This document shows positions 52,401-55,400 of a stretch of 64,000 nt of DNA, in pieces (within the stretch, counting starts at the first letter, position 1; each line of letters opens with the position of its first letter). Where the stretch lies: NCBI RefSeq assembly GCF_057098645.1, contig NZ_CM169472.1. One strand, given 5' to 3'. Made by a program: the position numbers.

Positions 52401-55400
52401 GCAGCAGCTTCTCGGCAATTTGCAGCATGACATCAAGACCGCCCGAAGCTTGCAAGGTCGCCGATGCCGCCACCACCGCAATGATAACCAGCATGACATC
52501 AACTGGTGGTTTACCTGGCTGAAGGTGGAAGACGAAGACCAGAATGACCAGACCGATACCGCCTAATAAACCCAGCGCGATACCACCCTTTCTGGCACCA
52601 TAAAACAGACATATCAGTATTATGATAAGTTGGATAGTAAATAACATGTGTGAACCCTCGCGATAATCCTATTTAAATTTTTGCTGAATAGATCACAGTC
52701 ACGTTCTGTTTTGTATGAACTGTTTTCAGAGCCTGACTAAATATCCGTTTGGTCGTTACCGGCTTTAGCAAATACCTCACAGTGAATATTGGCTGATTAA
52801 AGCAGCGGCAAATTTATGCACTGTGATAAGCGGCTTTTTCAGAGAGAAAAACTCTCTGGCGATGGGTTTAAAGTTTGTACTGCGCAGATGTTAATGTTTT
52901 GTTTGCTGTTATCTTATTGATATTTATCGGTCTATTTTTTGTTCTCAGAGCAGATATCATTAGGTTTATAGATTAATCTGATCTACCCATTTGTGGGTAA
53001 AAATACACATAATGCGGGTGACATAATAGTTAATTAACTTTTGTTAGCGTTTTGAAATTAAAAACACCGTTCACCTGAAGAGATATTAATTTTTAGCGAT
53101 GATGGAGGGATAATTATATTTGATCTGGCACAAGTTTTACTGATGAAGGATGTAACTTGTGCCAGGGATATTTTGCATTACGGTAATAATTATTACTTAC
53201 AGATAACCAGCGATCCGTTATTGGCAATATTGTTTCAGTAGTGAGTAGTGTTCTGCCTGAATACGGTAACGGTAAACTGGACGCCCCGTGACGCCATAAT
53301 GGATACTGGTGAACAAGATGTGGCAGTTGACCAGCCAGATGAGGTATTTACGGCAGGAAACACGCGAAATGTTAACCTCGTTGGCTAGCTCGTCGGTTGA
53401 AAACTCATAGTCCTGATGCGCGTCAATCCACTGGCACAGCGTGCGTAACGTCTGCGGCGTTAAGCCTTTTGGCAAGCGACGAGGATCCTGCTCGTTGGAG
53501 CTGCTGCCGTGGATTAGCTGATCAAGCTCGGCCTGGTCATAATACTGATGTTTTTCCAGCGCCATTTTCTTTTGCCGCCAGCCGGTGAGCGCCTCTTCAA
53601 AGCGGGAAGCCTGGAAGGGTTTGATCAGGTAATCCACGACACCGTAATGCAGCGAATCTTTAATGGTTGCCGCATCGGCTGCGGAGGAGATGACAATCAC
53701 ATCACTTTTGCAACGCGCGTTATGCAGGACAGGCAGTAAATCGAGCCCGTTCTCTTTTTGCATATAGATATCGAGCAATATCAGGTCGATAGGCGTATCG
53801 CTATTGAAGATAATCTCTTTGGCTTTCTCCAGCGTCGAGGCTGTTCCACAGCATTGAAAGCCTGGGATTTGTGCTACGTATCGGCGATTCAGCTCCGCGA
53901 CCATTGCGTCGTCATCGATAATTAATACATTGATCATCTGTTCGACCTCTCCCCGTCCCAGGGTATCTGGACAAAAAATTGTGTGAAAATCCCGGGTTCC
54001 GATTCCACGGCGATGCTGCCGCCGAGATTTTCTACCTGTTGTTTGACAAGTGCTAAACCGACGCCTCGCTCGCTTCCTTTTGTCGAGACACCTTTGTCAA
54101 AAATGTGATCGATTTTGTCGGGTGCGATCCCCGGTCCATCATCGTTAACTTCGCAGTGCAGCCAGCCGTGACGGTAGTGCAATGTTACGCTAATTTCGCC
54201 ACCGGGTTCCGGCCCTAATGCTTCCAGCGCGTTTTCTATCAGATTTCCCAATGTGGTAATCAGCGTCGCGACCTGGTCCTCACTGCCGCTGTCTGGCAGC
54301 TGGCTTTCACTGTTTAAAATCAGCGTATGGCCTAAATCGGTCGCGCGGTTAATCTTGCTGATTAAAAAACCAGCGATAACCGGAGATTTGATCTTACCCA
54401 GCAGAGAGCCAATCTCTTCCTGATAGTTATTGGCTGTTTTGAGAATGTAATCTTCCAACTGCTTATAACTCTTCAGATGCAATAATCCGAGAATCACATG
54501 CAATTTATTCATAAATTCGTGGGATCGTTCACGAAGTGCGTCAGCATAGTTGACCAGACCATCGAGTCGCTGCATCAGTTTACGTACTTCAGTTTTGTCC
54601 CTGAAGGTTGAAATGGCACCGATGATAACGCCATTACTGCGCACCGGAACGGTGTTGATCAGTAATAGCCGATCTTTAATCGTAATCTCTTCGTCGCGGC
54701 GCGGGGTACCGTCGCGTAACACTTCCGAGACATCTACCACCTGTGACCACGAGTGGCTGAGCGTCGACAGTTTCTCATCGTCCTGCGACTTACGGTAATT
54801 CAGCAATTCTTGTGCGGCATCGTTGATCAGCGTGACCTCGCCGCGATCGTCCACGGCAACGACGCCTTCTTTGATAGACTGCAACATGGCCTGGCGTTGC
54901 TCAAACAGCGTGGAGATTTCGTAGGGTTCCAGGCCGAAAAGGATTTTTTTCAGTACTTTAACCAGAATGCAGGTGCCAATCAGTCCGACCAGCATGCCAA
55001 ATAATACTGACCAGATAATGCTCCAGCGACTGTCATTGATCTGTTGGGTCACGCGGCTTAACTCAAGGCCGATCGCCACCACGCCAATTTGTTTATGATT
55101 TTCATCGTAGATGGGGGTAAATACGCGTAAAGCCTGCGCCAGAAAACCGCGATTGATAGCGACATTTTCTTCGCCATTCAGCGCTTTAAGGATGTCATCA
55201 CCTTTAAATGGCTGACCAATACGCTGGGCTTCAGGATGCGAGTAGCGAAGACTTTGCATATTGGTAACGACAATAAACAGCAGATCGTTGCGTTTGCGTA
55301 CGGCTTCTGCGATGGCCTGGATGCCGCTCTCCTGCGGTTTTTTCTGCAAGCCCTGACGGATTTCCGGCGAGTCGGCGAGAGTACGCGCCACTGCCAGTGC

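Follow-up and report, generated by a model that had tools for sequence, protein, structure and literature searches.

The long dcuR-dcuB spacer of Escherichia coli: regulatory DNA and a predicted Shine-Dalgarno-sequestering leader

Why dcuR and dcuB of Escherichia coli are held apart by a spacer with room for a gene of its own is the question raised by the stretch of DNA analysed here, which covers 64,000 nucleotides of contig NZ_CM169472.1 (RefSeq assembly GCF_057098645.1) and is called the window throughout. DcuB is the main anaerobic C4-dicarboxylate/succinate antiporter. A sequence-only reading had put the distance between the dcuR stop and the dcuB start at about 570 bp, and had called the spacer unusually long for E. 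coli and AT-rich with T-tracts, all of which holds. The spacer measures exactly 570 bp (52648-53217), ranks second by size among the 44 gaps found in 50 kb of annotated K-12 sequence around the locus (the largest being 657 bp), and has a GC content of 0.356, against 0.527 for the window, with only 0.44% of 570-bp windows being as AT-rich. Runs of at least five T occur at 5.3 per kb in the spacer and 2.0 per kb in the window, and runs of at least five A at 7.0 and 1.25 per kb, respectively, which amounts to an enrichment of 3-5 times. What had to be corrected was the direction in which upstream is read: dcuS, dcuR, dcuB and the fumarase gene all lie on the minus strand, so that the dcuR-side, upstream end of the spacer is 53217 and dcuB starts at 52647. 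K-12 MG1655 has a spacer of the same 570-bp length (4348745-4349314), and 5407 of 5426 complete E. coli genomes carry it.

Our answer is that the extra length of the spacer is regulatory DNA together with a structured 5' untranslated region (UTR). We lean towards a fuller reading, in which the spacer would act as a transcriptional and post-transcriptional control region of dcuB-fumB, with a leader that hides the Shine-Dalgarno (SD) sequence and with no separate small RNA (sRNA), attenuator or peptide.

Conserved islands and transcriptional layout

Scanning one genome per species yielded 80 dcuB loci. Direct adjacency, with dcuR immediately upstream of dcuB, is confined to Escherichia, Salmonella, Citrobacter, Trabulsiella and Intestinirhabdus. 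The dcuR-dcuB spacer in these five genera is 552-910 bp long with a GC content of 0.31-0.39 (0.45 in Intestinirhabdus), and a long AT-rich spacer is a conserved trait wherever dcuR adjoins dcuB. Fourteen spacers were aligned in dcuB sense, and 27 dcuR-dcuB loci were used for block presence; element positions are given relative to the E. coli dcuB ATG. The alignment consists of near-invariant islands amid diverged, indel-rich sequence, and none of the blocks was found in the dcuB loci of Klebsiella, Raoultella, Proteus, Serratia and others. The islands and sites upstream of the leader, and those around the two 5' ends, are as follows.

53167-53207 (-560 to -520), minus strand: block A, GTTATCTGTAAGTAATAATTATTACCGTAATGCAAAATATC, just past the dcuR stop; kept in five genera in the 14-spacer alignment.
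53183-53196, minus strand: 14-bp palindrome GTAATAATTATTAC inside block A, conserved in five genera.
53125-53165, minus strand: inverted repeat with perfectly matched 12-bp arms, CTGGCACAAGTT / AACTTGTGCCAG, spaced by 17 nt; Escherichia only.
53120-53133 (-486 to -473, centre -479.5), minus strand: FNR-type site TTGTGCCAGATCAA, called from the motif and a chromatin immunoprecipitation sequencing (ChIP-seq) peak.
53023-53066 (-419 to -376), minus strand: block C, TGTTTTTAATTTCAAAACGCTAACAAAAGTTAATTAACTATTAT, 44 bp; almost invariant in the 14 spacers and present in all 27 loci.
-361 to -351, minus strand: invariant GTGTATTTTTA, the conserved island containing the distal -10.
53000-53005 (-358 to -353), minus strand: distal -10 hexamer TATTTT, inside GTGTATTTTTA; invariant in 27 of 27 loci.
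52994 (-347), minus strand: proposed start of the distal promoter, p2, placed 132.5 bp, the published distance, downstream of the FNR site centre.
52984-52999 (-352 to -337), minus strand: NarL/NarP-type 7-2-7 palindrome TACCCAC-AA-ATGGGTA, straddling the p2 start.
-65 to -1, minus strand: promoter-proximal and SD block, a conserved island in the alignment.
52667 (-20), minus strand: p1, the proximal 5' end, from a table in PMC2760140.

The FNR-type site matches eight of the ten bases of the consensus TTGAT-N4-ATCAA, and is kept as TTGTG-N4-ATCAA in most genera. It also has support from chromatin data, as Myers et al. (2013) place the centre of the dcuB-fumB FNR ChIP-seq peak at 4,347,259 of U00096.2, and the top-scoring dcuB FNR site at -132.5 from the known transcription start. 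Using an offset that we verified from a mutation table (4347121 = -354), this peak centre maps to -492, that is, 12 bp from the motif centre. The spacing between FNR site and start in the other genera, as computed, is 132.5-136.5. The site therefore sits at -132.5, and not near the class II position of -41.5, which is used by 19 of 23 FNR-activated promoters (Myers et al., 2013). The position of this site is also what sets dcuB apart within the DcuR-, FNR- and NarL-controlled anaerobic respiratory promoters of E. coli (dcuB itself, frdABCD and dctA). Their published logic of anaerobic, C4-dicarboxylate and nitrate control is shared by this same locus, with a probable, AT-rich DcuR region just before the core promoter, an FNR site, and a NarL palindrome at the start.

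Block C covers -72 to -29 from the proposed distal start, or -399 to -356 from the -20 start, and is AT-rich. DcuR-P footprints are marked by tandem AT-rich hexamers, (T/A)(A/T)(T/C)(A/T)AA, just upstream of the core promoter. Janausch et al. in 2004 reportedly observed a DcuR-P footprint at -359 to -400 from the -20 start, and in the same year Abo-Amer et al. are said to have described a new dcuB promoter that responds to DcuR, whose site lies 27 bp before +1. The position of block C coincides with that reported footprint, its end falling 29 bp before -347, and the block is a probable DcuR-P binding region, as judged by sequence and position. It also holds, at 53030-53039, the ArcA-consensus-like AGTTAATTAA, which we take to match the ArcA-P box consensus WGTTAATTAW; an ArcA input at block C is possible. 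As for DcuR, dcuB upregulation in vivo is lost on deletion of dcuS or dcuR, according to a colonisation study with enterohaemorrhagic E. coli (EHEC).

The distal start at -347 is consistent with the -10 hexamer lying 6 nt upstream, and gives a 5' UTR that is 347 nt long in E. coli and reaches about 500 nt in Salmonella and the Citrobacter freundii group. It finds independent support in a substitution obtained during mouse-gut evolution at -354 (A to T on the forward strand, T to A in the sense strand), since this improves the -10 by turning TATTTT into TATTAT. The same start is also consistent with the DcuR-dependent promoter that Abo-Amer et al. reportedly found in 2004. Over this start, the two halves of the NarL-type palindrome match the TACYYMT heptamer in six of seven and seven of seven positions, in inverted orientation with 2-bp spacing; the window has one such match where 0.04 are expected, and in other genera the second heptamer reads AGGAGTA or AGGATTA. 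For the proximal 5' end, p1, the table in PMC2760140 lists -20 (Golby 1998) and -19 (DMTSS). A sigma-70 consensus scan returned no site in the spacer, a result that is uninformative for activator-dependent promoters.

The sequence-only reading had expected DcuR, FNR and NarL sites in the spacer. For FNR and NarL this is borne out by a site under a ChIP peak and by a 7-2-7 palindrome, respectively, while the DcuR block is a probable assignment from its position. The same reading had named a single start close to dcuB, with no conserved sub-elements, as the outcome that would count against it; what we found are 5' ends at -20 and around -347, and conserved blocks. The transcriptional layout as such, with FNR at -132.5, DcuR at about -72 to -29, a weak -10 and a NarL operator over +1, is already known in outline.

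Some features of this upstream half stand on their own. First, the start of block A, TTATCT...TAAT, loosely resembles the DcuR motif published at LEE1 (TTATCTCACATAATTTAT), and block A could be a second DcuR site or an element of the dcuSR 3' end. Second, the right arm of the 12-bp inverted repeat lies in the FNR site, and the repeat is absent from the other genera aligned; as an obvious dcuR terminator it was discarded, as no T-run follows it, and the terminator scan found no dcuSR terminator anywhere in the spacer. Third, near p1, a conserved TGTGATC... block (52682-52697; centre 42.5 bp before the ATG) keeps only the left half-site of a CRP/FNR-like motif. Beside it, the other genera have TTGACT-N16-TAAATA, a -35/-10-like pair whose start would fall at or next to the ATG.

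A predicted helix between block D and the ribosome-binding site

Downstream of the distal start, the leader is proposed to be structured, and the elements concerned are these.

52968-52986 (+9 to +27 of the p2 RNA), minus strand: hairpin H1, GUAGAU-CAGAUUA-AUCUAU, from per-sequence folds.
52858-52866 (-219 to -211), minus strand: block D, CCCAUCGCC, the proposed anti-SD strand; in E. coli AACCC-A-UCGC, 52859-52868.
-219 to -193, minus strand: block D in the comparative alignment, CCCATCGCC followed by a hairpin.
52840-52858, minus strand: hairpin D, CAGAGAG-UUUUU-CUCUCUG, directly 3' of block D.
52697-52738 (-91 to -50), minus strand: hairpin H4, whose 3' arm takes in the first base of the TGTGATC block.
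52653-52661 (-14 to -6), minus strand: SD block GCGAGGG(UU), with GAGGG as the Shine-Dalgarno sequence; proposed partner of block D.

Within the leader from -347 to -21, no run of at least 6 nt other than block D is kept in at least 13 of the 14 spacers. Its CCC(A)UCGC (-219 to -212) is complementary, with one bulged A, to GCGAGGG (-14 to -8), which is identical in all loci but those of the E. whittamii/E1V33 lineage (GUGAGGGG, with CCCC in block D). When RNA from block D to 20 nt past the ATG is folded, all seven pairs appear in the minimum free energy (MFE) structure with a pairing probability of 0.95-1.0, and the SD is left unpaired with a probability of about 0, in 17 of 20 species. For the folds of E. 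coli, Salmonella and C. amalonaticus, the helix is found in both MFE and centroid structures, and these leaders have z-scores of -3.07, -2.56 and -3.03, respectively, against dinucleotide shuffles. RNAalifold, run on 20 sequences and not given the proposal, recovered hairpin D, part of H4 and the helix that joins block D to the SD. Across five genera, this helix is predicted both by RNAalifold and by single-sequence folds.

Covariation is seen at the pairs that flank this helix. One such pair is U-A in 18 sequences and A-U in five, the latter being Escherichia, and the strands of the E. whittamii/E1V33 lineage read CCCC...GGGG, with A-U replaced by C-G and G-C by G-U. Between the two unchanging blocks lie anywhere from 158 to 317 nt, a variability that fits RNA pairing better than DNA geometry. 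A model with three helices is 87.7% paired, against 33-52% for slid partners, and its covariation score was reached by none of 500 shuffles. Two further copies of CCCATCGCC in the window have GC-rich surroundings and no adjacent hairpin.

Weighing against an SD-sequestering helix are several points, and some of them favour a rival in which the spacer is a promoter scaffold acting at the DNA level, its conserved blocks being protein-binding or architectural and its 5' UTR a passive by-product. First, the seven core pairs never vary, so that the core provides no covariation signal, and its invariance could have separate causes on the two strands, namely, SD function on one side and a DNA site on the other. 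Second, seven base pairs with a bulge against the SD region arise in 45% of shuffled leaders; only the coincidence of SD complementarity with the one invariant block is unusual, at roughly P = 0.03 by our own estimate. Third, the three-helix model was itself drawn from the sequences on which it is scored, so that its control with slid partners is inflated. Fourth, the predicted helix is lost in E. coli and several other species once at least 80-100 nt of coding sequence are folded with it. The E. coli competitor for block D is GCGCUGGG (52570-52577, +70 to +77, dcuB codons 24-26), a mimic of the SD block, and the competing segment differs in other species. Fifth, only a weak helix is predicted for Citrobacter NCU1 and Awk4 and for Intestinirhabdus. 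Sixth, it cannot control all dcuB mRNA, because -20 transcripts lack block D. Seventh, the start at -347 combines a published distance with a motif position.

The promoter-scaffold rival can call on further support. The TnCCCAT of block D resembles the NarL heptamer TACYYMT, and C. amalonaticus has a perfect TACCCAT; and the region is extremely AT-rich. Under this rival, CCCATCGCC and the inverted repeats would be NarL-like heptamers, CRP/FNR half-sites, or sites for IHF, Fis or H-NS. Moreover, Myers et al. report that nucleoid proteins strongly shape FNR occupancy genome-wide. What speaks against it, besides the variable spacing of block D to promoter and ATG (158-317 nt), is that positions 1-2 of the block D heptamer vary (AA, AC, TG, TT, TA, TC, CG) next to a fixed CGCC, and that hairpin D, H1 and H4 keep their pairing amid sequence change, unlike DNA sites for a fixed protein, with G-U pairs that favour the transcribed strand. 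On balance, we regard a purely DNA-level scaffold as rather unlikely.

The behaviour of these three hairpins deserves a closer description. A hairpin at the H1 place is predicted in 21 of 21 sequences with differing stems, of which four are GUCUG/CAGAC, GUCCGG/CCGGAU, GUCAGG/CCUGAC and UAGAU/AUCUA, and several H1 stems have G-U pairs that work only on the dcuB-sense strand; per-sequence folds were used for H1, as its Escherichia sequences do not line up in register with those from elsewhere. For hairpin D, 90.7% of cells are paired, against 35-65% for slid-partner controls, and five of its seven pairs show changes on both sides. Its cells include 11 G-U and four A-C, which mildly favours the sense strand, and the folding energies (means of -8.2 kcal/mol sense and -9.3 kcal/mol antisense) do not decide between strands. 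The helix of H4 is 80% paired overall, with three pairs changing on both sides; the RNAalifold consensus includes three H4 pairs, and C-G is replaced by U-A in six sequences. The first base of the TGTGATC block described above is at the same time the last base of the H4 3' arm, so that this block may be promoter, helix arm or both. Two other roles considered for hairpin D were dropped. Its 3' arm, taken by eye as the anti-SD strand, pairs weakly and without conservation, and as a terminator it lacks a T-run on either strand, being followed by A-runs in the sense direction and by GGCGAUGGG in the antisense direction.

Conserved RNA structure in the leader, as seen in H1 and hairpin D, is more likely than an SD-sequestering leader, the case for which, resting on these models, we judge to be about evenly balanced. 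The literature accessible for this analysis makes no mention of a conserved dcuB leader structure. Under the control-region reading that we favour, FNR occupies the site centred at -479.5, and DcuR-P at block C would activate the weak, activator-dependent distal promoter, a step proposed from sequence, while NarL at the palindrome over the start would let nitrate block initiation. The distal transcript would then carry an A-rich 347-nt leader able to fold into H1, hairpin D, H4 and the long-range helix, and block D would pair with GCGAGGG and bury the SD, so that translation of full-length distal transcripts would stay low unless the helix is opened or removed. Candidate release routes are a cleavage giving the -20 end, an RNA or protein acting in trans on block D, and ribosome or standby effects.

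The first of these routes would imply that the -20 end is a processing product of the distal transcript, for instance by RNase E, and that cleavage just 5' of the SD helix frees the ribosome-binding site from block D, as the activating step. The preference of RNase E is RN/WUU, which the -20 context GG/AUU fits: the sequence is GG/AUUAUC in E. coli and GG/UUUAUC or GG/UUUUUC elsewhere, 5-6 nt upstream of the helix. For a start at -20, E. coli has a poor -10, and other genera carry TTGACTGGG in its place, and still the block is conserved; also, the -20 and -19 values come from a table entry, and the methods behind them may not tell primary from processed ends. On the other hand, the -20 end was reportedly interpreted as a promoter by Golby et al. 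in 1998, and a beneficial IS5 insertion at -120, described below, parts dcuB from the distal promoter, which is easier to understand if dcuB can be driven by a promoter close to -20 or by one that reads out of IS5. Processing at -20 is thus a tentative option, and we hold it doubtful.

For the second route, it is tempting to consider the FNR-induced sRNA FnrS, of which nucleotides 21-28, GCGAUGGG, are a perfect complement of CCCAUCGC in block D. Six of these eight bases lie in the conserved, unpaired loop of the FnrS 5' hairpin (AAGCGAUGGG), and the predicted duplex of FnrS with block D has -15 to -20 kcal/mol, against -11 to -14 kcal/mol for block D with the SD. A windowed duplex scan puts the block D site in second place, after an artefact of the FnrS terminator, and six of 100 shuffles reach the best score; whole-molecule RNAduplex runs of FnrS against the leader were set aside, as they gave meaningless full-length duplexes. 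The literature searched yielded no link between FnrS and dcuB regulation, and to our knowledge the FnrS targets described so far are all repressed. That the FnrS loop pairs with block D, frees the ribosome-binding site and couples dcuB translation to anaerobiosis is accordingly an improbable proposal on these predictions; if true, dcuB would be the first positively regulated FnrS target, and FNR would act on fumarate respiration through a coherent feed-forward loop. A milder variant, in which another RNA or a protein binds block D in place of FnrS, is speculative. Matches of 8 nt are not rare, and the unrelated AspX, listed in K-12 RefSeq as an sRNA at the aspA 3' end, upstream of the paralogue dcuA (L082:44840-44952, outside the window), likewise has an 8-nt match to the leader, with its 5' end against the E. 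coli H1 loop (-335 to -328), which is probably a chance match, the H1 loop sequence not being conserved.

The search for hidden genes, and gut-adaptive mutations

The size of the spacer had led the sequence-only reading to suggest an unannotated sRNA or leader peptide. Indeed, 570 bp and a 347-nt leader leave room for one, and E. coli has sense open reading frames (ORFs) of 30 aa (52868-52960) and 35 aa (52673-52780). However, the evidence goes the other way. First, at permissive E-values, the best match of the spacer in Rfam 15 has E = 0.79, with 24.9 bits against a gathering threshold of 78, and belongs to an unrelated family. Second, the spacer has no sigma-70-like site and, on either strand, no terminator-like site (hairpin plus T-run), the latter arguing against an attenuator. 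Third, the K-12 RefSeq annotation has nothing inside the spacer, though AspX, PmrR and GhoT are listed nearby. Fourth, conservation was assessed for ORFs of at least 10 codons, of which the spacer has 19 on both strands, and 18 of these 19 are not intact in any genus besides Escherichia. The sole exception is a 14-codon antisense ORF, also intact in two C. amalonaticus spacers, and save for this one no ORF is conserved beyond E. albertii. The longer spacer ORFs fall where other genera have large indels, and an antisense ORF through hairpin D, which we also considered, is intact in no other species. The suggestion of a hidden sRNA or leader peptide was not upheld at the level of Rfam matches, terminators or conserved ORFs of at least 10 codons, and an independent sRNA gene or translated upstream ORF that regulates dcuB from within the spacer is very improbable.

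The spacer is among the most repeatable targets of adaptive mutation during mouse-gut colonisation by E. coli, and the element map accounts for the promoter-proximal mutations. In addition to the substitution in the distal -10, IS2 insertions were selected in the mouse gut at two positions, -338 and -359, and anaerobic dcuB mRNA is higher in the clone that carries the former. The dcuB locus was hit in seven of 14 wild-type mouse populations and in none of 15 Rag2-/- populations. Further downstream, between block D and the SD, lies the target of a recurrent insertion.

52765-52768 (-121 to -118), minus strand: CTAA target of recurrent IS5 insertion, between block D and the SD.

The IS5 insertion is recorded at U00096.2 position 4346885 as IS5 +4 bp. 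Its coordinate prefix occurs seven times in the supplement of that study, and the allele reached 77% and 48% in two of the wild-type-mouse populations. If the SD-sequestering helix is true, it would provide a concrete hypothesis for this hotspot, namely, that the insertion parts the anti-SD strand from the SD. As for the physiological setting, deletion of dcuB in EHEC gives a competitive index of 0.03 in infant rabbits, and the introduction of the same study states that commensal E. coli mutants in fumarate respiration colonise poorly and that fumarate respiration supports Salmonella gut growth. A real helix would place post-transcriptional control on top of a textbook transcriptional circuit; without it, the region is a well-characterised complex promoter.

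A further mutation touches hairpin H1: at 52969 (K-12 4,349,066; -322), a T-to-A polymorphism was present at 14.7% in one gallium-evolved K-12 population, at the closing pair of H1. Its position on H1 is probably incidental.

Comparison with known systems and the neighbourhood of the spacer

Three known systems offer points of comparison. First, like the rpoS leader, that of dcuB has a long 5' UTR, an upstream segment predicted to pair with the SD, and an adjacent hairpin with an A-rich stretch. The inhibitory stem of rpoS is opened by DsrA, RprA or ArcZ with Hfq. The rpoS stem is local, whereas the predicted dcuB helix is short, at 7-9 bp, and encloses some 200 nt. Second, in shiA the sRNA RyhB pairs with the anti-SD strand and frees the ribosome-binding site. 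The dcuB message is likewise a transporter mRNA with an SD-sequestering structure, here predicted, and FnrS, with a conserved loop complementary to the anti-SD strand, would be its candidate sRNA; the FnrS-dcuB pairing differs in being an 8-nt match, with a whole-leader scan not above shuffles. Third, as in IS5-activated promoters of the glpFK, flhDC and bgl type, a single CTAA some 100 bp before the proximal start has taken up IS5 again and again under selection in vivo, but in dcuB the insertion also separates the anti-SD strand from the SD, so that two mechanisms are confounded. Relative to previous work, what is new is the conserved-element map tied to ChIP and evolution data, together with a predicted SD-sequestering 347-nt leader outside Rfam, and the novelty is modest.

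The genes around the spacer are the following.

53934-55565, minus strand: dcuS, upstream of dcuR.
53218-53937, minus strand: DcuR ORF (NF007750, 503.6 bits).
51307-52647, minus strand: Dcu-family anaerobic C4-dicarboxylate transporter; the NCBIfam matches are at subfamily level, and RefSeq records name it DcuB.
49583-51229, minus strand: class I fumarase in the fumB position, downstream of dcuB.

Two observations on the leaders of other genomes remain. About 150 bp of leader present in Salmonella and the C. freundii group (L008:3053-3164, also L006:3574-3684 and L014:2876-2987) are missing from Escherichia, where they would fall at window positions 52930-52950. This stretch holds hairpin H2 (GTAGCA...TGCTAC), which is found in every genus but Escherichia and is also gone in C. 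amalonaticus S646, as well as a CRP-consensus site, perfect in C. youngae (TGTGATCGTGATCACA), that lies in the transcribed leader some 340 bp before the ATG. Finally, in E. coli strain S7 (NZ_CP107128.1, L084:4001-4433) the leader of dcuB ends about 271 bp before the ATG, where a truncated gpFI phage gene and tail genes take over, the remaining locus being elsewhere on the chromosome; this is most likely a rearrangement via a prophage that parted dcuB from its distal promoter.

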